9,748 nt of DNA, taken from positions 1 through 9,748 of IMG/VR virus record IMGVR_UViG_2671180603_000017. The stretch is one strand, 5' to 3'. The DNA is from a virus (taxonomy: Duplodnaviria > Heunggongvirae > Uroviricota > Caudoviricetes). Both the position numbers and the translations under genes were made by a program. The notes below the pieces were generated by a model. The model was not told the origin of the DNA, made no database searches, and was given only the letters and a program-made list of their open reading frames with translations. Positions 76 to 9,748 of this stretch are shown piece after piece; positions within the stretch are counted from its first letter, which is position 1, and each line of letters opens with the position of its first letter.

Positions 76-627
76 TCAACAATGAATTTTGAGTAATTGT
101 TCCACAGTCATATTTTTAATTGCGCCCCGGTTAACAAGAGTCCATCCCTGTTTTTCCAGATAAAACCGGAAAGTCTCCAGGGGACAGACCAGTGCGCCAT
201 CAGGAACGGTTTCGGTGAATTCGACATTGCCGAATTTGTCGAAGTGAACAACCAGAGTGCGACCATCACCCGGAATCATCTTGTCAGCAGGTGGGGTGTT
301 ATTCTGGCGCAGTTCGGCCTCCATGCGGTCGAACTCAGCAATGTATGCCTCTTTGAATGCGGCGGCTTTTTTGCCCGTGAAGCCCATCACCAGGAAAACG
401 AAGCCGTTTTTGGTGATTTGGTACATTGGGAGTTTGCGCCCGATTGAGTCGGTGTATTCGCTCGCTTCAAAATTGAGGGCAGTAAATTTATCTGAGCATT
501 CAATATTTGCGATGGCACGTAACACATTGTCGTGTCGTTTGTGGAAGAACTCTGCAACCGCAACAGACGTAGTGACAGCGCGACCGTTTTCTACGGTTAC
601 ACAAGGGTGAGAAAGGGTAGTAGCCAT
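76..627 (-). CDS. Rha-family phage regulatory (antirepressor-like) protein, module copy 1; 183 aa from ATG 625-627; an in-frame upstream AUG at 718-720 would add 31 aa
   Basis: The track ORF 76..990 carries Rha-type motifs from memory (ENGRAVTTS..AEFF.KRHDNVLR, then YQITKNGFVFLVMGFTGKKAAAFKEAYIAEFDRMEAEL). The ATG at 625-627 is preceded by GGAGG with 8-nt spacing. The track's longer N-terminal extension runs through a promoter, a non-coding RNA and a terminator, so it is unlikely to be coding. Confidence 0.7.
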   Translation of the reverse strand: MATTLSHPCVTVENGRAVTTSVAVAEFFHKRHDNVLRAIANIECSDKFTALNFEASEYTDSIGRKLPMYQITKNGFVFLVMGFTGKKAAAFKEAYIAEFDRMEAELRQNNTPPADKMIPGDGRTLVVHFDKFGNVEFTETVPDGALVCPLETFRFYLEKQGWTLVNRGAIKNMTVEQLLKIHC

Positions 628-660
628 GATGGCAGCCTCCGCGATGAATTTGATTAACTC

Positions 661-690
661 ACCACCGGAGGTAGCAATCTCATGGGTGGT
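661..690 (-). promoter_or_regulatory. Leader hairpin (stem CUCACCACC/GGUGGUGAG) whose loop contains site B (GAUUGCUACC), a same-sense mimic of the small-RNA loop
   Basis: 9-bp stem; the loop sequence is identical to the sRNA loop core and therefore complementary to site A; covaries in copy 2. Confidence 0.45.
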
Positions 691-700
691 GAGACGTACA

Positions 701-714
701 GGGTTGCTACAACC
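701..714 (-). promoter_or_regulatory. Leader target site A (mRNA sense GGUUGUAGCAACCC), complementary to the small-RNA loop; sits just downstream of in-frame GUG/AUG at 723-718
   Basis: Ten base pairs with one bulged nucleotide against sRNA GGG(A)UUGCUAC; covaries with the sRNA loop in copy 2. Confidence 0.5.
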
Positions 715-793
715 GGTCATCACGGAACCCGGCCAGTCTTGCGACTGCCCCGCACGCCCCACCATAATTTGAATGTGGCTGTGCATTACGCAT

Positions 794-816
794 AAAAAAA
801 CCGCCTGAGCGCGGTT
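794..816 (-). terminator. Intrinsic terminator: 6-bp stem AACCGC/GCGGUU, 6-nt loop, U7 tract
   Basis: Hairpin followed by a U-run on the minus strand; the plus strand has no T-run after the stem, so it is unidirectional. The stem is short, so termination may be partial. Confidence 0.45.
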
Positions 817-870
817 ATGCGCCGTGAATGACTTCGGGGTAGCAATCCCGGCACCCGTTTTATGAGGTGC
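794..870 (-). ncRNA. Putative ~77-nt antisense-type small RNA (c4-like by analogy), copy 1; second hairpin CGGG-AUUGCUAC-CCCG
   Basis: Strong promoter immediately upstream, no AUG inside, two hairpins (GCACC/GGUGC and CGGG/CCCG), ending in a stem (AACCGC/GCGGUU) plus U7 terminator. The loop is complementary to leader site 701-714. Confidence 0.5.
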
Positions 871-876
871 AGGTGC

Positions 877-905
877 ACTATAATTCCACCCGTTCTGGTT
901 TTCAA
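877..905 (-). promoter_or_regulatory. Sigma70-type promoter for the small RNA and possibly read-through Rha mRNA: -35 TTGAAA (905-900), 17-bp spacer, -10 TATAGT (882-877)
   Basis: Near-consensus hexamers at optimal spacing, read directly on the minus strand; identical in copy 2. Confidence 0.5.
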
Positions 906-1044
906 TAGCTACATTCAACATTTTCTCTTTCCTTTCATCACCGAAGTGAACTTTGTTGATGCGGTGAATGCGGCTCAGCGCACGCGGCACAGTTAAAAAG
1001 CGATTAGTTCCCCCGTATCGGGTGGTTATGGGTTTCCCTGTATA

Positions 1045-1610
1045 GCTGAACCAGACGTTCGCTCCTACAGCACCAAATCAGGTCTGGGTGGCGGACCTGA
1101 CGTATGTTGCCACACAGGAGGGATGGTTGTACCTCGCTGGCATCAAAGATGTTTATACGTGCGAAATTGTCGGCTACGCCATGGGAGAGCGCATGACAAA
1201 AGAGCTGACAGGTAAAGCCCTGTTTATGGCGCTCAGGAGCCAGCGCCCACCTGCCGGGCTAATCCACCACTCTGATCGAGGTTCACAGTACTGCGCATAC
1301 GATTACCGGGTCATACAGGAGCAGTCTGGTCTGAAAACATCAATGTCGCGTAAAGGTAACTGTTACGACAACGCTCCGATGGAAAGCTTCTGGGGAACGC
1401 TGAAAAATGAGAGCCTGAGCCACTATCGTTTTAATAACCGGGATGAAGCCATCTCAGTAATACGGGAATACATTGAGATTTTCTACAATCGTCAGCGTTG
1501 TCACTCTCGTCTGGGGAATATCTCCCCGGCAGCCTTCAGGGAAAAATATCATCAGATGGCTGCTTAAAAAAAGAACAAATGGTAGTGTCCGCTATTGCCA
1601 GTACACCTCA
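1045..1610 (+). mobile_element. IS3-family (IS600-like) element, 3' fragment of 566 bp ending at the right terminus ...GCCAGTACACCTCA
   Basis: Near-exact reverse-complement copy of 2823-3388; contains the transposase OrfB C-terminal coding region; the terminus ends in CA as in the IS3 family. Confidence 0.8.
1046..1567 (+). pseudogene. IS600-like transposase OrfB, C-terminal fragment (5'-truncated, no start codon)
   Basis: Track ORF 1088..1567 has a C-terminal sequence identical to that of ORF 2866..3966; the reading frame is open back to the fragment boundary. Confidence 0.8.
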
Positions 1611-2154
1611 AAAGTAATTGTTCCACAGTCATATTTTTAATTGCGCCCCGGTTAACAAGAGTCCATCCCTGTTTTTCCAGATAAAACCGGAAAGTCTCCA
1701 GGGGACAGACCAGTGCGCCATCAGGAACGGTTTCGGTGAATTCGACATTGCCGAATTTGTCGAAGTGAACAACCAGAGTGCGACCATCACCCGGAATCAT
1801 CTTGTCAGCAGGTGGGGTGTTATTCTGGCGCAGTTCGGCCTCCATGCGGTCGAACTCAGCAATGTATGCCTCTTTGAATGCGGCGGCTTTTTTGCCCGTG
1901 AAGCCCATCACCAGGAAAACGAAGCCGTTTTTGGTGATTTGGTACATTGGGAGTTTGCGCCCGGTTGAGTCGGTGTATTCGCTCGACACAAAATTGTGCT
2001 CAGTGAATTTTGCTGAACAGTCCAGATTGCGAATTTTATCCAACACTCGTTCGTGGCGTTTGCCAAAGAACTCGGCGATCGCAACAGAGGTAGTGACAGC
2101 GCGACCATTTTCGATGGTTACGTCAGGGTGAGAAAGGGTAAGGATAGTAGCCAT
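1564..2154 (-). CDS. Rha-family antirepressor-like protein, module copy 2 (196 aa from ATG 2154-2152); divergent N-terminal domain, C-terminal tail and stop codon supplied by the abutting IS600 end
   Basis: Mosaic paralog of 76..627: residues after the Rha domain are identical, the Rha domain is divergent (MATILTLSHPDVTIENGRAVTTSVAIAEFFGKRHERVL...). The last 11 codons (LRCTGNSGHYHLFFF*) read into IS sequence. Confidence 0.6.
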   Translation of the reverse strand: MATILTLSHPDVTIENGRAVTTSVAIAEFFGKRHERVLDKIRNLDCSAKFTEHNFVSSEYTDSTGRKLPMYQITKNGFVFLVMGFTGKKAAAFKEAYIAEFDRMEAELRQNNTPPADKMIPGDGRTLVVHFDKFGNVEFTETVPDGALVCPLETFRFYLEKQGWTLVNRGAIKNMTVEQLLLRCTGNSGHYHLFFF

Positions 2155-2323
2155 GATGGCAGCCTCCGCGATGAATTTGATTAACTCACCACCGAGGTTT
2201 TCCACGACCATAAGGGTGGTGAGACGTACAGGGGTGGAAATACCGGTCATCACGGAACCCGGCCAGCCTTGCGGTTGCCCTGCACGCCCCACCATAATGC
2301 GAATGTGGCTGTGCTTAACGCAT

Positions 2324-2400
2324 AAAAAAACCGCCTGAGCGCGGTTATGCGCCGTGAATGATTTCGGGTTTCCACGCCCGGCACCCGTTTTATGAGGTGC
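2324..2400 (-). ncRNA. Putative small RNA, copy 2; second hairpin CGGG-CGUGGAAA-CCCG
   Basis: Same promoter (-10 at 2412-2407, -35 at 2435-2430) and terminator as copy 1; differs from copy 1 only in the hairpin-2 loop and one adjacent base; loop complementary to leader site 2231-2244 (mRNA sense GGUAUUUCCACCCC). Confidence 0.5.
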
Positions 2401-2406
2401 AGGTGC

Positions 2407-2435
2407 ACTATAATTCCACCCGTTCTGGTTTTCAA
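2407..2435 (-). promoter_or_regulatory. Sigma70-type promoter for small RNA copy 2 (TTGAAA, 17 bp, TATAGT)
   Basis: Sequence identical to the copy 1 promoter. Confidence 0.5.
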
Positions 2436-2474
2436 TAGCTACATTCAACATTTTCTCTCACCTTTCATCACCGA

Positions 2475-2628: not shown

Positions 2629-2865
2629 TTAAAAAGGGCGGACATCAGCCAGCAATTAAACCGATGCCGCCAACTGGTACTTCACACAGCAATGTCGTTA
2701 TTTACAACCGGAGGCGCACTCCCACCATTTAAATTTAACAGACAAGACCGACTCTTTATGGATACCGGAAATGCGCCTTCGTGTTGTGCCCGGTTTTATT
2801 TCACCACCTCCGGGCTTTGGTATGAGGTGTACTGGCAATAGCGGACACTACCATTTGTTCTTTTT

Positions 2866-4271
<1,406 letters not shown>

Positions 4272-4272
4272 G

Positions 4273-4575
4273 GTTCAGCAGATTTGGCGCAACTGGCAGA
4301 TTGTGGTTCGAGTTCGTAGTCGCTCTGAACTTGCGTTTCTGCTTACAGCGTAGCCTTAGCTCCTTACGAAGACGTGCCAGTCGGTCACGACCAACGATGA
4401 TGCCATTCTCTGCCAGCTCCGTCTGGAGCCGCCGGGTTCCATATGTTTCGCGAGTGCGGATATGTGCCACCTTAATCTCCAGTTTTAGCCGCTCATCACT
4501 TTGTTTTCTGTCTGAGGGTTCATGCTGTACCCAGTTGTAATAACCGCTCCTGGATACACCAAATACCTGACACAT
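4273..4575 (-). pseudogene. IS600-like OrfB N-terminal portion, interrupted at 4272 by the IS911-like terminus
   Basis: Track ORF 4198..4575 matches IS600-like OrfB (MCQVFGVSRSGYYNW...NLPVAPNLLN) and then diverges at the junction. Confidence 0.7.
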
Positions 4576-4610
4576 CGCTTCAATGGGAAATTGTTGTCGC
4601 CATTGTTCGA

Positions 4611-4913
4611 TTAACGCGTATTTTTCAGCGACTCCTGTGCAAAATACGCTGTTGCTTTTTTTAATATATCTCGCTCAAGGCGAGCTTCATTTAACGCCTT
4701 ACGCAGTTGCAGAATTTCAGATTCCAGTTCAGCCACCGTGCGGGAACCAGGAGTACCGAGCCCTTTTCTGGCGGCGGTAACCCATTGTCCTAAAGTGCCT
4801 TCAGGAAGAGATAATCGGGAAGCGCCTTCACTGATCGAAAGTTGATTTTCAGGAACCGTTCTGACAGCTTCGGCTTTGAACTCTTTAGAGTAACGTTGGG
4901 TTTTTCTGCTCAT
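4611..4913 (-). CDS. IS600-like OrfA (transposase N-terminal HTH and leucine-zipper protein, 100 aa)
   Basis: Track ORF MSRKTQRYSKEFKAEAVRTV...ILKKATAYFAQESLKNTR, typical IS3-family OrfA; followed by an overlapping orfB in the -1 frame. Confidence 0.8.
   Translation of the reverse strand: MSRKTQRYSKEFKAEAVRTVPENQLSISEGASRLSLPEGTLGQWVTAARKGLGTPGSRTVAELESEILQLRKALNEARLERDILKKATAYFAQESLKNTR
4655..4662 (-). promoter_or_regulatory. Programmed -1 ribosomal frameshift site (A AAA AAA G) joining orfA to orfB
   Basis: A7G run in the orfA frame (UUA AAA AAA GCA). The orfB frame is open from this point down to 4273 (read codon by codon), as in other IS3-family OrfAB fusions. Confidence 0.6.
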
Positions 4914-5023
4914 TATTAGCTCCTTCTGATGCCATTCTATTTCAGGAAGGAGTGTCCGTTAAACTCAGGCTACCTCAGTGGTATCTTTACTGAAGTTCTC
5001 ACACAACCAGTAAGGAAATGAAT

Positions 5024-5314
5024 ATGCCAACGTATCTCGCCAGAGTAGAACTATATAATGCTGAGCCAGAGGATTACGAAGGGCTTCATAAATATATGCT
5101 CTCACTAGGATTCAGGAGAACGATCCCCCATGGAGATGGTTCGTATAATCAACTCCCGGACGGAACTTATGTTTCCGAAAAGGGCGGTGATATTTATCAA
5201 ATTCGCAGCCAGATATCTGACTATGCAGACCGACTATCCAGGTATCGCGCGTCTGTTTTTGTTTGCGAATTCAGTCAATGCGCATGGTATTTATACCCCG
5301 CCAAGACCCGGTGA
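5024..5314 (+). CDS. Hypothetical protein, 96 aa (track ORF 5018..5314; second ATG favoured)
   Basis: AAGGAA Shine-Dalgarno 7 nt before ATG 5024; no recognisable family. Its 3' end overlaps the convergent gene 5291..5494 by 24 bp, so one of the two calls may be wrong. Confidence 0.35.
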   Translation: MPTYLARVELYNAEPEDYEGLHKYMLSLGFRRTIPHGDGSYNQLPDGTYVSEKGGDIYQIRSQISDYADRLSRYRASVFVCEFSQCAWYLYPAKTR

Positions 5315-5494
5315 ATATCCTGCACGGCCTTCTGCTTTGTAGAAGGCTTCTTCGCTATCATAATCGCCAGATTCCAGCGCTTCTTTAGCCAGCCAGATGC
5401 GTGCCCCAGTGCCTGCATTTGGCTCCAGTTGCTGGAGGCGTTTTGCATCTTCTAGGAGTAGAGCGATAACGTGTTTTAATTCTGTCTCGTTCAT
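5291..5494 (-). CDS. Hypothetical small acidic protein, 67 aa (MNETELKHVIALLLEDAKRL...)
   Basis: ATG 5494-5492 preceded by AGGTGA; start lies 4 nt after the stop of the upstream small gene (compact, possibly coupled). Confidence 0.45.
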   Translation of the reverse strand: MNETELKHVIALLLEDAKRLQQLEPNAGTGARIWLAKEALESGDYDSEEAFYKAEGRAGYSPGLGGV

Positions 5495-5495
5495 T

Positions 5496-5651
5496 TTACT
5501 CACCTGAATGTCTTCCCAACCAACGACGTGCGCCAGCTTCGGTTTTAAACGTTTTGCTTTTGGTATACGTCATGGCGGTGAATGTGCCGTCTTGATTGGG
5601 AAACACGCCACATACCAGAGATTCGTTGTTGCCAAGATCGATAGTATTCAT
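5496..5651 (-). CDS. Hypothetical small protein, 51 aa (MNTIDLGNNESLVCGVFPNQDG...)
   Basis: ATG at 5651-5649 with a G-rich Shine-Dalgarno upstream; first gene downstream of the leftward promoter at 5832-5860. The track ORF's TTG start at 5714 is unlikely. Confidence 0.45.
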   Translation of the reverse strand: MNTIDLGNNESLVCGVFPNQDGTFTAMTYTKSKTFKTEAGARRWLGRHSGE

Positions 5652-5831
5652 GTTGACCCCATTTCCCCTTAACGCCGGGTGGCGGAACGTTTTATCTACT
5701 GCGCTTTGTATCAATCAACAACTGCCGTCATGTTCGTATGCCTCAGGCTGGCTACTTAGCCCTGTTCAGTGACTGGATAACTCGAGGTATTGTCCTGCCG
5801 TTCTCTGGTGGGGCGTTGTTTGGATATGCTT

Positions 5832-5873
5832 ATTAAACACAATTTGTTTTCTTGTGTCAACACGCAACGTGTT
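5832..5873 (-). promoter_or_regulatory. Leftward (PL-like) promoter: -35 TTGACA (5860-5855), 17-bp spacer, -10 TTTAAT (5837-5832); overlapped by operator-like palindromes AACACGCAACGTGTT (5859-5873) and ACACAA-N9-TTGTGT (5837-5857)
   Basis: Hexamers and palindromes read directly; the half-site AACAC/GTGTT recurs in the divergent promoter region at 6434-6448. Confidence 0.45.
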
Positions 5874-5902
5874 TTATGGTGAGTGTCATATGATGATGCT
5901 AC

Positions 5903-5925
5903 AAAAAAGCCCGCTGATAGCGGGC
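5903..5925 (-). terminator. Intrinsic terminator of the repressor gene: stem GCCCGC/GCGGGC, 5-nt loop, U6 tract
   Basis: GC-rich hairpin followed by a U-run on the minus strand, 32 nt downstream of the repressor stop. Confidence 0.6.
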
Positions 5926-5956
5926 TGATTGGCATATTACTGTGATAGCAAGATCA

Positions 5957-6376
5957 TTATTCCGGTGGGGGATTATCTTTAATCCTGCCTCTCAAATATT
6001 TTTCTACATACTCATCGATTTCTTTTAGCCGGACTTCAAATAGCTCAATCATTCGTTGTTGTTCTGAGCCCGGTAGCTGGTTAAACAACTCAAGAAGTTT
6101 TCGTTGGGATTCATTTAACCACAATTCAGAAGATTCCTGTTCTCCAAAGAGGAGCTCAGGAGGAGATATGCCAAGTGCCTTTCCCAATACGACAGCGTCA
6201 TGTACTCCAACATTTCTGCTGCCCGCCTCATAGTTACCTATACGCGATTGCGTCCATCCGCAGATTTCAGCAAGTTTTCCTTGAGATAAACCAAGCTTCT
6301 GCCTGCGCTCTTTAAGACGCATTGCAATTTTGTCATTGAGCCTACTAGCGGCAATTTTTTCGTTTTCTTTTTCCAT
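5957..6376 (-). CDS. Prophage repressor, HTH XRE family (DicA/CI-like), 139 aa
   Basis: HTH motif LGLSQGKLAEICGWTQSRIGNYEAG; a C-terminal segment (QRKLLELFNQLPGSEQQRMIELFE) resembles my recollection of DicA; divergently arranged with a Cro-like gene. Confidence 0.7.
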   Translation of the reverse strand: MEKENEKIAASRLNDKIAMRLKERRQKLGLSQGKLAEICGWTQSRIGNYEAGSRNVGVHDAVVLGKALGISPPELLFGEQESSELWLNESQRKLLELFNQLPGSEQQRMIELFEVRLKEIDEYVEKYLRGRIKDNPPPE

Positions 6377-6387
6377 TGCATCCTTGT

Positions 6388-6448
6388 ATCACGAATCGTG
6401 ATTTACATAAAACACAAAACAGCTTGGCTATATAACACAAGGTGTGTT
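6388..6448. promoter_or_regulatory. Divergent promoter/operator region: palindromes ATCACGA-A-TCGTGAT (6388-6402) and AACACAAGGTGTGTT (6434-6448)
   Basis: Perfect inverted repeats in the 96-bp intergenic region between the repressor and Cro-like genes; GGAGG Shine-Dalgarno at 6462-6466. Confidence 0.5.
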
Positions 6449-6472
6449 TAAAATTGTCATCGGAGGTTTTCA

Positions 6473-6715
6473 ATGAACAAAATTTCAACATATCGAAAAC
6501 AGCTTGGGCTGTCTCAAAGACAACTTGCTGTTCAGTTAGGGTGGATACAAAGCCGACTGGCAAATTACGAAGCAAATTTTCGTACCCCTGGACTAGAGGA
6601 GTGCAGAAAAATTGTTTCTACCCTTAATCGGCTTGGCGCTCATTGTGGACTTGACGATGTATTCCCCCCAGACGGTAAGCATAGCGAAAACAGCATAGGA
6701 GCGGTTGATTCATGA
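6473..6715 (+). CDS. Cro/YdaS-like HTH DNA-binding protein, 80 aa
   Basis: HTH motif LGLSQRQLAVQLGWIQSRLANYEAN, nearly the same recognition helix as the repressor; strong RBS; stop overlaps the next ATG (ATGA). Confidence 0.65.
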   Translation: MNKISTYRKQLGLSQRQLAVQLGWIQSRLANYEANFRTPGLEECRKIVSTLNRLGAHCGLDDVFPPDGKHSENSIGAVDS

Positions 6716-7133
6716 AAATCAGGCATGAGCACATCGAATCAGTGCTGTTGCCCTGGCAGCCGAAAAAGGGCAGGCGTGGGTCGCTAACGCAATTACTGAA
6801 GAATATCTGCGCCAGGGGGGCGGCGAATTGCCCCTTGTACCAGGCAAGGACTGGAACAATCAGCAGAATATCTATCACCGTTGGTTGAAAGGTGAAACGA
6901 AAGCGCAAAGGGAAAAAATTCAGAAACTGATCCCTGCGGTTCTGGCAATTCTTCCGCGTGAGCTGCGTCACCGACTCTGTATCTTCGATACCCTGGAACG
7001 CCGTGCATTACTGGCGGCGCAGGAAGCGTTGAGTACGGCAATTGATGCGCATGATGATGCAGTCCAGGCCGTTTACCGGAAAGCGCATTTCAGCGGCGGC
7101 GGGTCTTCCGACGATTCTGTCATTGTTCATTAA
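6712..7133 (+). pseudogene. ydaT: YdaT-like (Rac prophage) gene with an apparent 1-bp deletion frameshift near 6748-6752
   Basis: ATG 6712 is translationally coupled (ATGA) and encodes MKIRHEHIESVL, then hits a stop at 6886. The rest of the protein (AEKGQAWVANAITEEYLRQGGGELPLVPGKDWNN...SDDSVIVH) is in the -1 shifted frame (track ORF 6828..7133), which has no ATG or GTG start. Confidence 0.55.
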
Positions 7134-7196
7134 GCAAAAGTTTCCATGCTGTTTGTGCTTATTCTAAGCAACCGGGCAGCATCATACGGGGCAATT

Positions 7197-8345
7197 ATGG
7201 CCGCATTACCATACATGCAACTGTACATAGCTGATTACCTGGCTGACACCATGCATTTGTCAGCAGAGGAGCACGGCGCGTATTTGTTGCTGATGTTCAA
7301 TTACTGGCAAACAGGAAAGCCAATACCCAAAAACAGGTTGGCAAAAATTGCCCGTCTGACTAACGAGCGATGGGTTGATGTTGAACCATCCTTGCGGGAG
7401 TTTTTTTGTGATAACGGCGACGAATGGATGCATCTTCGGATTGAGGAAGATCTGGCATCTGTCAGAGAAAAATTAACCAAAAAATCAGCCGCAGGAAAAG
7501 CATCTGTTCAGGCCAGAAGAAGCAGAAAGGAAGCAGATGTTCAAACAAAACAAGAGAGAAATTTAACAGGTGTTCAAACAGATGTTGGAGTGATGTTCGA
7601 ACATGATGCCAACACAAAGGCAACTAATAAAGATACAGATAAAGATCTAAAAACAGATCTAACCCATCCCAAACCCTTCCCTTCCGGAAGGGAGTTTCGG
7701 GATTTTGTGGCTGGAGTGCTTGAGGGGAGATTATCTGGCGGTACTGCAGCGGAATTTTGTAATTCTGCGGTGGTTGCGTTGCAGGCTGCTGGCCTGGATG
7801 TCTGTCGTGAGTATCCGGTGCCAGAGCGTGGTGACGGTTGCGGAGGGCGGATTGATATCGTCGTGACTGACAGGAACGGTGTCCGGTGTGGGAGCGAGCT
7901 TGACCGAAATTCTCCGCGACAGAAATCACTGCTCAAAATCGGTGCTGTTGAAACCGGGATATGTGTCTTGCGGCGCAGTGATATCGCAAGGCACACCGAG
8001 CAGGGAATTCTGGTTATCGGTGGGGCTGTTCGCCAGAAAAAATTTGACCCGTTGTCAGTTGATCTGCCCGACTGGTTGCCAGAAACACTCTGGCATGAGT
8101 GGGTCCAGTTCAGGCAGGCATTGCGAAAACCGATTCGAACGGAGCAGGGCGCTAACGGGGCGATACGGGAACTGGAAAAATTCCGTCAGCAGGGTTTTAC
8201 ACCTGAGCAGGTGATTCGACACAGCATCGCCAATGAATACCAGGGTCTGTTCGCGCCGAAAGGTGTTCGGCCTGAGACGTTGCTCCGACAGGTTAACACC
8301 GTCTCGTTGCCGGACAGTGCGATCCCGCCAGGCTTCAGGGGGTAA
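7197..8345 (+). CDS. YdaU-like phage replication protein (N-terminal DUF1376-type domain, charged linker, C-terminal domain), 382 aa; alternative start 7146
   Basis: Track ORF 7146..8345; the internal ATG 7197 has a G-rich Shine-Dalgarno; N-terminus MAALPYMQLYIADYLADTMHLSAEEHGAYLLLMFNYW; positioned directly upstream of a DnaC-like gene. Confidence 0.6.
   Translation: MAALPYMQLYIADYLADTMHLSAEEHGAYLLLMFNYWQTGKPIPKNRLAKIARLTNERWVDVEPSLREFFCDNGDEWMHLRIEEDLASVREKLTKKSAAGKASVQARRSRKEADVQTKQERNLTGVQTDVGVMFEHDANTKATNKDTDKDLKTDLTHPKPFPSGREFRDFVAGVLEGRLSGGTAAEFCNSAVVALQAAGLDVCREYPVPERGDGCGGRIDIVVTDRNGVRCGSELDRNSPRQKSLLKIGAVETGICVLRRSDIARHTEQGILVIGGAVRQKKFDPLSVDLPDWLPETLWHEWVQFRQALRKPIRTEQGANGAIRELEKFRQQGFTPEQVIRHSIANEYQGLFAPKGVRPETLLRQVNTVSLPDSAIPPGFRG
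7536..7660. other. Putative replication origin inside the YdaU-like gene: three 12-bp iteron-like repeats G(A/G)TGTTC(A/G)AACA at 7536, 7569 and 7592, then an AT-rich segment with two GATC sites (7621-7660)
   Basis: Repeats read directly; they fall in the low-complexity linker coding region, as the lambda origin does within gene O. Confidence 0.35.
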
Positions 8346-8351
8346 CAGACC

Positions 8352-9098
8352 ATGAAAAATATTGCGACAGGAGGCGTTCTGGAGCGTATCCGCAGACTGA
8401 CCCCACCACATGTAACCGCCCCATTCAGAACGGTTGCGGAGTGGCGCGAGTGGCAACTTGCTGAAGGCCAGAAACGTTGCGAGGAGATCAACCGCCTGAA
8501 TCGTCAGTTGCGGGTGGAAAAAATCCTGAACCGCTCCGGCATCCAGCCGTTGCACCGGAAGTGTTCGTTTGCGAATTACCGGGCGCAGAACGACGGTCAG
8601 CGACATGCACTGAGTCAGGCGAAATCCATAGCTGACGAACTGATGACAGGCTGTACGAATTTTGTGTTCAGCGGTAAGCCCGGCACCGGAAAAAATCATC
8701 TTGCAGACGCGATTGGCAACCGGCTGATGGCGAAGGGGCGTAGCGTGATTATCGTCACCGTGTCCGATGTCATGAGCGTGTTGCATGAGAGCTACGACAA
8801 CGGCAAATCCGGTGAAAAATTTTTACAGGAGCTTTGTGGTGTTGACCTGCTGGTCCTGGATGAAATTGGCATGCAGCGGGATACGAAAAACGAGCAGGTG
8901 GTACTGAACCAGATTGTTGATCGCCGGACGGCATCGTTACGCGGTGTGGGGATGCTGACAAATATTAACCATGCAGCGATGAATACACTTCTCGGCGAGC
9001 GGGTGATGGATCGCATGGTCATGAACGGCGGGCGCTGGGTGAATTTTAACTGGGAGAGCTGGCGTCCGAATGTTAGCCATTCGAGGGTTGTTAAGTAG
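8352..9098 (+). CDS. ydaV: DnaC/IstB-like AAA+ helicase loader (YdaV-like replication protein), 248 aa
   Basis: Walker A GKPGTGKNHLA and Walker B LLVLDEIG; position after the replication-initiator-like gene; close to my recollection of Rac YdaV. Confidence 0.75.
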   Translation: MKNIATGGVLERIRRLTPPHVTAPFRTVAEWREWQLAEGQKRCEEINRLNRQLRVEKILNRSGIQPLHRKCSFANYRAQNDGQRHALSQAKSIADELMTGCTNFVFSGKPGTGKNHLADAIGNRLMAKGRSVIIVTVSDVMSVLHESYDNGKSGEKFLQELCGVDLLVLDEIGMQRDTKNEQVVLNQIVDRRTASLRGVGMLTNINHAAMNTLLGERVMDRMVMNGGRWVNFNWESWRPNVSHSRVVK

Positions 9099-9112
9099 TT
9101 TCAGGAGGATTT

Positions 9113-9535
9113 ATGGCGAAACCTTTTACTCCCGAACAGCGGGAAGAACTGAAGACGCGAATTGTGGAACTCGTGCATCAGGACGGTCGGGTCACGATTC
9201 GGCAGTTGTCAGATGAAACAGGTATCAGTCGTGCGTCTGTCGGTCGCTTATGCATAGAACTGGTCGCAAGTGGTGATGTATATAATTCTGGCTACGGCTT
9301 ATTCCCGTCTGAACAGGCTCGCAAGGACTGGCAAAGCGCCCGCAAAAAACTCTCGAGAGTAAAGGTGAGGAAACCGGTTGTTGTTGATCCGGACCTTATC
9401 TGGTCATTACCTGACGGAGAAATACGCCGCTACGACAGGCGCCTGAATATAATCTGTCGCGAGTGCCGGAAGAGCGAAGCTATGCAGCGTGTACTGGCTT
9501 TCTATCAGGGTAATTTTCAGGAGGCGATACTGTGA
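9113..9535 (+). CDS. Hypothetical phage protein with a putative N-terminal winged-HTH (VTIRQLSDETGISRASVGRL), 140 aa
   Basis: AGGAGG Shine-Dalgarno 5 nt before the ATG; C-terminal region duplicated in the next gene. Confidence 0.55.
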   Translation: MAKPFTPEQREELKTRIVELVHQDGRVTIRQLSDETGISRASVGRLCIELVASGDVYNSGYGLFPSEQARKDWQSARKKLSRVKVRKPVVVDPDLIWSLPDGEIRRYDRRLNIICRECRKSEAMQRVLAFYQGNFQEAIL

Positions 9536-9592
9536 ATGAAATTAGCTATCAGGCTTCAATTACCGCTGGCATTCGCATCAAAGGAGAGGAGC

Positions 9593-9748
9593 ATGGAAAT
9601 AAAACACAAAAAGCTATCGAGGGTAAAGGTGAAGAAACCGGTTGTGGTTGATCCTGACCTTATCTGGTCATTACCAGACGGAGAAATACGCCGCTACGAC
9701 AGGCGCCTGAATATAATCTGTCGCGAGTGCCGGAAGAGCGAAGCTATG
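9593..9748 (+). CDS. Partial CDS (3' end outside window), paralog sharing the C-terminal module of the preceding gene (…KLSRVKVKKPVVVDPDLIWSLPDGEIRRYDRRLNIICRECRKSEAM…)
   Basis: ATG 9593 preceded by AAGGAGAGGAG; an in-frame alternative ATG exists at 9536; 9610-9748 is near-identical to 9347-9485. Confidence 0.5.
   Translation, partial: MEIKHKKLSRVKVKKPVVVDPDLIWSLPDGEIRRYDRRLNIICRECRKSEAM

Follow-up and report, generated by a model that had tools for sequence, protein, structure and literature searches.

Two mosaic alleles of an isrK-C4 antirepressor cassette on one draft contig of lambdoid prophage DNA

The window analyzed here is the whole of a 9,748-nucleotide (nt) draft contig from a Caudoviricetes virus (IMG/VR record IMGVR_UViG_2671180603_000017; contig CXDK01000186.1 of assembly GCA_001252175.1). 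It carries two copies of a module in which small RNAs precede a Rha-family antirepressor gene, referred to below as copy 1 and copy 2 in the order of their coordinates. We consider it likely that both copies represent an antirepressor cassette already known from other prophages, that they are partly orthogonal mosaic alleles belonging to two related prophages, and that their tandem layout is artefactual.

Each copy has the parts of a known control cassette

By its sequence, each copy appears to represent in full a control cassette already known from prophages, namely, the P1 immI-type module or the isrK-orf45-anrP module of Gifsy-1. The Rfam families isrK (RF01394) and C4 antisense RNA (RF01695) were matched in both copies on the minus strand, all above their gathering scores, and every module feature described in this section lies on that strand. 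A promoter-like site of sigma-70 type, TTGAAA-17-TATAGT, is located just upstream of isrK at 877-905 in copy 1 and in the same form at 2407-2435 in copy 2; it is near-invariant among the 38 unique relatives surveyed below.

The isrK-type RNA of copy 1 (794-870; 64.8 bits, gathering score 50) carries a1, UUGCUAC, in the loop of its hairpin 2 (839-845) and b1, UCAUUCACGG, in the linker after that hairpin (822-831), and it has an intrinsic terminator stem (799-816) identical to that of copy 2. The isrK-type RNA of copy 2 (2324-2400; 67.7 bits against 50) has a1, GUGGAAA, in the hairpin 2 loop (2369-2375), b1 at 2352-2361, and the terminator stem that ends it at 2329-2346. The isrK element a1 complements the C4 element a' perfectly over 7 nt, and the C4 b' loop is the pairing partner of b1.

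The C4 antisense RNA occupies 682-769 in copy 1 (79.0 bits, gathering score 45) and 2212-2299 in copy 2 (76.3 bits against 45), and the matches are full length in both (model positions 1-87). In copy 1, b', UUCCGUGAUGA, forms the loop of C4 hairpin 2 (717-727), and a', GUAGCAA, lies in the 3' single-stranded stretch (704-710). Copy 2 has an identical b' loop (2247-2257) and UUUCCAC as a' in the 3' stretch (2234-2240). Downstream of C4, the leader of copy 1 (628-681) contains a2, UUGCUAC, a few bases after C4 (671-677) and b2, UCAUCGCGGAG (637-647), which overlaps the Shine-Dalgarno sequence GGAGG at 636-640, 8 nt before an AUG. The leader of copy 2 (2155-2211) has a2, GUGGAAA, at 2199-2205, b2 at 2164-2174, and a Shine-Dalgarno sequence at 2163-2167. 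In each copy, C4 and its target sites lie behind one shared promoter-like site in a read-through layout.

The original prediction, made from the letters of the window, had named a GNRA-type leader hairpin (731-751 and 2261-2281) as a candidate specificity element. This is hairpin 1 of C4 (734-747 with a GCAA loop in copy 1; 2264-2277 in copy 2), a structural helix and no target site, and its changes between the copies are partly compensatory. Two non-standard pairs were flagged in hairpin 1 of copy 2, which reads CAACC...GGCUG with an A.C mismatch at 2275, where most relatives have CAGCC. The mismatch at 2275 is not a sequencing error, because the same base is present in the complete genome CP180280.1.

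The Rha-family (AnrP-like) gene of copy 1 (76-627, minus strand) encodes 183 amino acids (aa) from the AUG at 625-627 and is followed by a dicB-type flank. Its product matches Pfam PF09669 (Phage_pRha) with 108.7 bits and belongs to PHROG transcriptional regulator and anti-repressor families. The Rha-family gene of copy 2 (1564-2154, minus strand) has a diverged N-domain, and its C-terminal KIHC is replaced by a tail encoded by the insertion sequence (IS) IS600. The most plausible start of rha, 8 nt after GGAGG, is AUG 625-627 in copy 1 and AUG 2152-2154 in copy 2.

Taken together, these parts suggest how the cassette would work in a lambdoid prophage of Rac-like type, where it belongs to the early-left operon. 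One constitutive-looking promoter would yield a 77-nt terminated RNA, isrK, with decoy sites a1 and b1, and read-through transcripts would carry C4, then a2 and b2, and then the Rha/AnrP-type antirepressor gene. By analogy with P1 and Gifsy-1, a' and b' of C4 would pair with a2 and b2 and leave the antirepressor untranslated, and the short isrK RNA would pair with the same C4 sequences and relieve the block.

Relation to known RNA-controlled antirepressor systems

Our comparison with P1 used the annotated P1 record and an alignment of P1 with P7. The order in the P1 record is promoters, a1, b1, c4 RNA, a2, b2, icd, and ant. One and the same part of P1 is matched by the Rfam c4-a1b1 family (RF03163) and, below threshold, by isrK, so that the isrK RNA is the a1b1 element of the c4 system. 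As in immI of P1 and P7, a promoter precedes a1 and b1, C4 displays b' in a hairpin loop and a' in a 3' single-stranded stretch, a2 follows C4, b2 lies over the ribosome-binding site, and an antirepressor gene comes last; the variants likewise differ by three-way compensated changes. Unlike P1 and P7, which differ by two compensated bases at both a and b in the alignment, the window copies differ at a only. The downstream gene is also different, being of the Rha family (Phage_pRha) rather than icd with a KilAC-type Ant1/2 gene, and P1 Icd had no significant Pfam match in common with the window Rha protein. In addition, the host element of the window module is a lambdoid prophage, whereas P1 is a plasmid prophage. 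By analogy, the window module would work like immI, but it is not the P1 operon.

Another close counterpart is the isrK-orf45-anrP locus of Salmonella Gifsy-1 (Hershko-Shalev et al. 2016; PMC4825925). In that study, transcripts pass the isrK terminator, an RNA of ~80 nt, STnc1160, is processed from the orf45 region, and the 3' portion of orf45 is bound by the middle hairpin of IsrK through base pairing, as proved by the compensatory mutants G28A/C162U and G31A/C159U. The short IsrK activates translation of the AnrP antirepressor in trans, and the isrK mutation G28A abolishes this trans-activation. By our own position count, the mutated bases would lie in the a1/a' pairing region. The window shares with this locus the Rfam isrK family, the read-through design, and a Rha-type antirepressor (AnrP there), and the processed RNA STnc1160 occupies the position of C4. 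We found isrK, a short open reading frame (ORF) over the processed-RNA region, and a Rha-type gene in that order within a lambdoid prophage. In Gifsy-1, orf45 is separate, ends in AUGA, and is translationally coupled to anrP, whereas the orf45 frame of the window is fused to rha; the same fusion is noted in PMC4825925 for S. dysenteriae. The names C4 and P1 c4 were not encountered in the passages of that study consulted.

Two further systems are related in part. The CI RNA of satellite phage P4 (seqA/seqB/seqC) resembles C4 as an RNA of immunity that is cut out of the leader of its own target operon and has complementary sites on either side, upstream and downstream. PMC4825925 treats it as an analogue and describes it as acting via transcription termination, unlike the mechanism proposed for the window module. 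In P22, the small antisense RNA sar limits ant translation by direct pairing with ant mRNA (PMC12197685). As proposed here, antirepressor translation is limited by an antisense RNA, in that case without the two-site a/b design and without a decoy element. The window module is thus a member of the system described in Gifsy-1, and finding it by itself changes little.

Predicted pairing specificity differs at site a and is shared at site b

Site a differs between the copies in all three partners, and the changes compensate one another: a1 and a2 are UUGCUAC and a' is GUAGCAA in copy 1, against GUGGAAA and UUUCCAC in copy 2. At site b, the b' loop, b2, and the 10-nt core of b1 are identical in both copies, and the 5' flank of b1 differs by one base. 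It had been proposed that the small RNA loop and leader sites A and B all differ between the copies; this is correct for site a, in all three partners, but not for site b, where the core is identical.

Duplex folding of full-length C4 with isrK or the leader was uninformative, as it ignores intramolecular structure, and we used short accessible segments instead. These gave short-segment energies of -19.4 and -19.2 kcal/mol for the cognate a-site duplexes of copy 1 and -19.5 and -15.6 kcal/mol for those of copy 2, versus -8.0 to -10.7 kcal/mol for non-cognate a-site pairs. The strongest predicted duplex was that of the shared b' with the Shine-Dalgarno region (-22.3 kcal/mol). We predict that the isrK/C4 pairs of the two copies are at least partly orthogonal, because site b is shared and site a differs with matched changes in three partners. 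The claim of heteroimmune-type divergence is accordingly narrowed: the a-site changes are three-way compensatory as in P1 and P7, but the b core is shared and the GNRA hairpin is no determinant. From the sequences, heteroimmunity is plausible at site a only.

Sites a and b co-vary across relatives

To place the two copies among their relatives, we compiled a set of 106 full-length modules, drawn from genomes of E. coli, Shigella, and Citrobacter as well as from IMG/VR prophages, which reduced to 38 unique sequences. These contained 6 a-types and 11 b-types in 16 combinations, all co-varying. In all 6 a-types, a1 equals a2 and is the exact reverse complement of a' (7/7 positions), and across the 11 b-types b' and b2 pair at 10 or 11 of 11 positions. 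The fixed-column structure of a MAFFT alignment was unusable, as a2 and b2 shift register between types, and a synthetic in-register alignment was built in its place. In this alignment, 97% of cells were paired compared with 68.8% after shuffling, and none of 500 shuffles reached the observed values; here the best-matching complement within 25 to 33 nt was used for a2 and for b2, which biases those helices, and a1 was taken from fixed columns. Nineteen of the 25 pairs change on both sides. Cognate and non-cognate energies of the surveyed types were clearly separated at all four interactions.

The module is common, an RNA-region query having matched 214 phage records, including many Shiga toxin (Stx)-converting phages, phiP27, SfV, and mEp460. 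One complete Stx2a-converting phage (L109; LC727844.1) holds two isrK-C4 modules, at 4975-5157 and 14048-14236, 9 kilobases apart and pointing the same way. Both of their sites are of different types (a, UUGCUAC versus UUCGAAC). The gene downstream of the second module is another antirepressor-like gene, and the two modules control different antirepressor families. Co-resident modules were heterotypic in every case seen (L031/L038, L019/L022, L057/L101, L011, and L012), a sample too small for statistics. Most of them differ at both sites, and L031/L038 share a and differ at b only. For the Rha N-domain, at least 11 clusters were distinguished, and their distribution over the RNA types shows partial reassortment.

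On this evidence, enterobacterial lambdoid isrK-C4 modules may form a two-site combinatorial specificity code of at least 6 a-types and at least 11 b-types in 16 combinations, with sites reassorting by recombination, a proposal on which we are evenly balanced.

One alternative holds that the a-site differences are without functional consequence, the shared b at the ribosome-binding site dominating, so that the two modules are effectively homo-immune. The identity of b' and b2 and the strength of their predicted duplex fit this, as does the co-resident pair that shares a and differs at b only. We regard it as unlikely, however, in view of the strict three-way co-variation at a across 6 types and of the difference between P1 and P7 at a as well as b. 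The Gifsy-1 mutation G28A, which alone abolishes trans-activation (PMC4825925) and lies in a1 by our count, also speaks against it. We keep partial orthogonality through site a as the preferred reading.

The tandem layout probably arose in assembly

The contig alternates between two related prophages in an A-B-A order. Positions 4978-9177 are 100% identical to prophage type A (CP061367.1), 9028-9605 are 100% identical to prophage type B (CP180280.1), and 9607-9748 are again 100% type A; this last piece lies inside a DUF977 gene and repeats a segment already present in the B version. The gene segment of 142 nt accordingly occurs twice at 95% identity (9343-9484 and 9607-9748). The 9605/9607 join looks like an assembly chimera, because there is no IS element at it.

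The joins around the modules were searched in 5,426 complete E. coli genomes. Between the copies lies an IS600 fragment (1045-1610, plus strand), which comprises the last 566 nt to the right end of the element and is internally cut; the right end of IS600 interrupts the last 4 codons of rha in copy 2. Next to it is a 78-nt segment of a variable cassette (967-1044) that is normally found upstream of the module and is here inverted and directly abuts it. Contigs L011 and L012 have the 967-1044 segment in the opposite orientation and 45 nt further from the module. The joins 966/967 and 1044/1045 were both absent from the searched genomes. Upstream of copy 2 lies an IS600 with an IS911-family insert (2823-4977, minus strand). 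The insert is the last 676 nt of its element (3596-4271), and IS600 sequence is duplicated around it over 220 nt (3375-3594 equals 4266-4485). The 4271/4272 join was also absent from these genomes. The breakpoints of the two IS600 pieces lie within 8 nt of each other. The other join of the IS911 fragment shows a 5-nt microhomology (GGAGA).

Within rha, five clustered synonymous sites (346, 349, 361, 376, and 388) distinguish all 12 other copy-1 loci from the copy-2 version, and only in this contig does copy 1 have the copy-2 bases there. An assembler merging near-identical paths would explain this identity, and so would gene conversion. The complete genomes CP061367.1 and CP180280.1 hold one allele each, with no second module adjacent to either. 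Since the contig alternates A-B-A between homologous prophages and its joins have not turned up elsewhere, the tandem placement is probably an assembly artefact, a chimera of scaffolding or gap closing. In this reading, prophage A carries the 139-aa cI-like repressor, copy 1, and dicB, and prophage B carries a 135-aa cI-like repressor and copy 2 cut by IS600. Both alleles are in the same sequenced sample, as one genome or as a mixture. The claim that recombination had brought the two modules together is thus doubtful, as the A-B-A contig and its unique joins point to the assembler, although recombination did shape the alleles themselves.

The tandem could also be real in the strain, IS600-mediated recombination having put copy 2 upstream of a resident copy 1 and gene conversion having equalized the 3' 349 nt. 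In other genomes copy 2 is bordered by IS600 ends that sit at the same insertion sites, the genome background is IS-rich, other draft contigs carry several modules, and the patch of five single-nucleotide differences could be a conversion tract. We hold it to be quite improbable that such an adjacency exists in the cell. The IS600 piece is internally cut and joined to the inverted 78-nt segment by joins found in none of the searched complete genomes, the same contig has a second, IS-free join of two alleles in series at 9605/9607, and CP061367.1 and CP180280.1 each show a single allele.

The copies are mosaic alleles of separate origin

On the minus strand, 966 to 92 and 2496 to 1613 are collinear in a global alignment, and the direct repeat reported for 92-1044 and 1613-2500 is real. 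Its ends need adjustment: copy-to-copy homology stops at 966/2496, and 967-1044 is a different piece. Identity is sharply non-uniform when pairwise alignments are read segment by segment. The segments 92-391 and 1613-1912 are a direct repeat of 100% identity, and 684-966 and 2214-2496 are 92% identical. From 5' to 3' within the module, identity is 96.7% for the upstream and promoter segment (global alignment), 92.8% for isrK, 87.5% for C4, 80% for the leader, and 78.4% for the coding sequence of the Rha N-domain (first ~65 codons; 51 identities in the first 70 aligned aa columns), followed by 351 of 351 nt in the 3' coding part of rha. The boundary near 442 is a sharp transition at which 22% divergence abuts 0%. 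The patchiness described in the original prediction is borne out by these values, as are its divergent Rha N-domain, its identical C-terminal part, and its identical promoter and terminator (the hexamers and terminators match). The TGA said to remove the upstream frame in copy 2 can be read directly, in frame, upstream of ATG 2451.

Each allele also occurs alone. The copy-1 allele is found alone at 99.2% identity in 7 complete E. coli genomes and at 99.5% in the complete genome CP061367.1, at the native position of the same prophage, where the order is cI-like (139 aa) ... DUF1391 - 67 aa - 96 aa - module - dicB. In the complete genome CP180280.1, a sequence identical to copy 2 and interrupted by IS600 at the same base is framed by two full IS600 elements in inverted orientation, and gam, rather than copy 1, comes next after it. 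The comparison with single-copy homologs upholds the earlier view that the modules are distinct alleles and not a recent duplication, since both are found singly in other genomes. Most of the nearest relatives of copy 2 have a different C-terminal type (27 loci), and the Shigella-type copy 2 instead has the one seen in copy 1. Because of this mismatch, the boundary near 442 is a real recombination product and the copies are mosaic alleles from recombination among prophages. A recent tandem duplication followed by rapid divergence of one copy, which the direct orientation and the 100% identical 3' part might suggest, is hardly credible when both alleles occur separately in other genomes almost base for base, 22% divergence sits beside 0% at a sharp boundary, the spacer is a truncated IS with no duplication junction, and IMG/VR prophages often carry relatives of copy 2.

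Several points weigh against our overall interpretation of the window. The two C4 RNAs may cross-repress through the shared b, so that orthogonality would be only partial. Copy 2 may be partly defective, with its weakened C4 hairpin 1 and C-terminally altered Rha. We infer C4 processing, the translational block, and the antirepressor activity of these copies by analogy. The end of the IS911 fragment at 4271 is the precise terminus of the element and looks biological, draft contigs L011 and L012 also carry two or three modules separated by IS1, and the call of an artefact is drawn from comparison of sequences, not from reads. Shigella-type genomes, moreover, undergo IS-mediated rearrangements.

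Gene annotation and surrounding prophage region

In related genomes with RefSeq-style annotation, and in the gene calls of this contig, a longer ORF runs from upstream of the isrK promoter through both RNA genes. Residues 14-104 of this long ORF match Pfam PF10554 (Phage_ASH), at 637-921 in copy 1 and 2164-2451 in copy 2, both on the minus strand. The matching stretch covers the promoter, isrK, the terminator, C4, and the leader, all conceptually translated. The PF10554 family, or at least these "Rha family" coding sequence (CDS) starts, may be based on translated RNA genes. The N-terminal ORF extension was also considered as an Icd homologue and dropped, as P1 Icd has no PF10554 match. An orf45-like frame from an AUG in the 5' end of C4 (763-765 in copy 1) is fused in frame to rha (625-765 and 2152-2295), and the insertions and deletions between the copies, 3 nt at a2 and 6 nt after the rha AUG, keep the orf45-rha frame. 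A frame across the copy junction (968-1567) contains a stop codon.

The remainder of the contig includes an ordinary Rac-like immunity and replication region (5957-9535). It comprises a cI-like helix-turn-helix gene (5957-6376, minus strand), a cro-like gene (6473-6715, plus strand), a YdaT-like gene, a DUF1376 O-like gene (7146-8345), a DnaC/IstB-like ATPase gene (8352-9098), and the DUF977 gene (9113-9535). An imperfect inverted repeat of ~23 nt, AAGTGAAYTTTGT(T)GATGCGGTG, occurs at 944-966 and 2600-2622 and also in L012 (3035-3201). It brackets a variable cassette of 100 to 122 nt just upstream of the module, of which there are at least 3 versions. FDAARGOS_943, taken up as a candidate complete genome with the tandem layout at 94% coverage, was rejected, as it holds one module and IS600.

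Implications

The finding links three literatures that are seldom brought together, those on P1 c4/a1b1, the Rfam C4 and isrK families, and Gifsy-1 IsrK/STnc1160/AnrP, as dealing with one mechanism. It also carries a warning for annotation: at this locus, RNA genes are overlapped both by Pfam PF10554 and by the CDS starts that RefSeq assigns to the "Rha family". If the two-site code is true, it would keep the antirepressor switches of several prophages in one cell insulated from each other, and the window pair (same b) and L031/L038 (same a) would be natural single-site variants with which to ask whether one site is enough for orthogonality. Such strictly co-varying two-site polymorphism could be what insulates co-resident prophages, Stx phages among them, from one another in the manner of immunity types.

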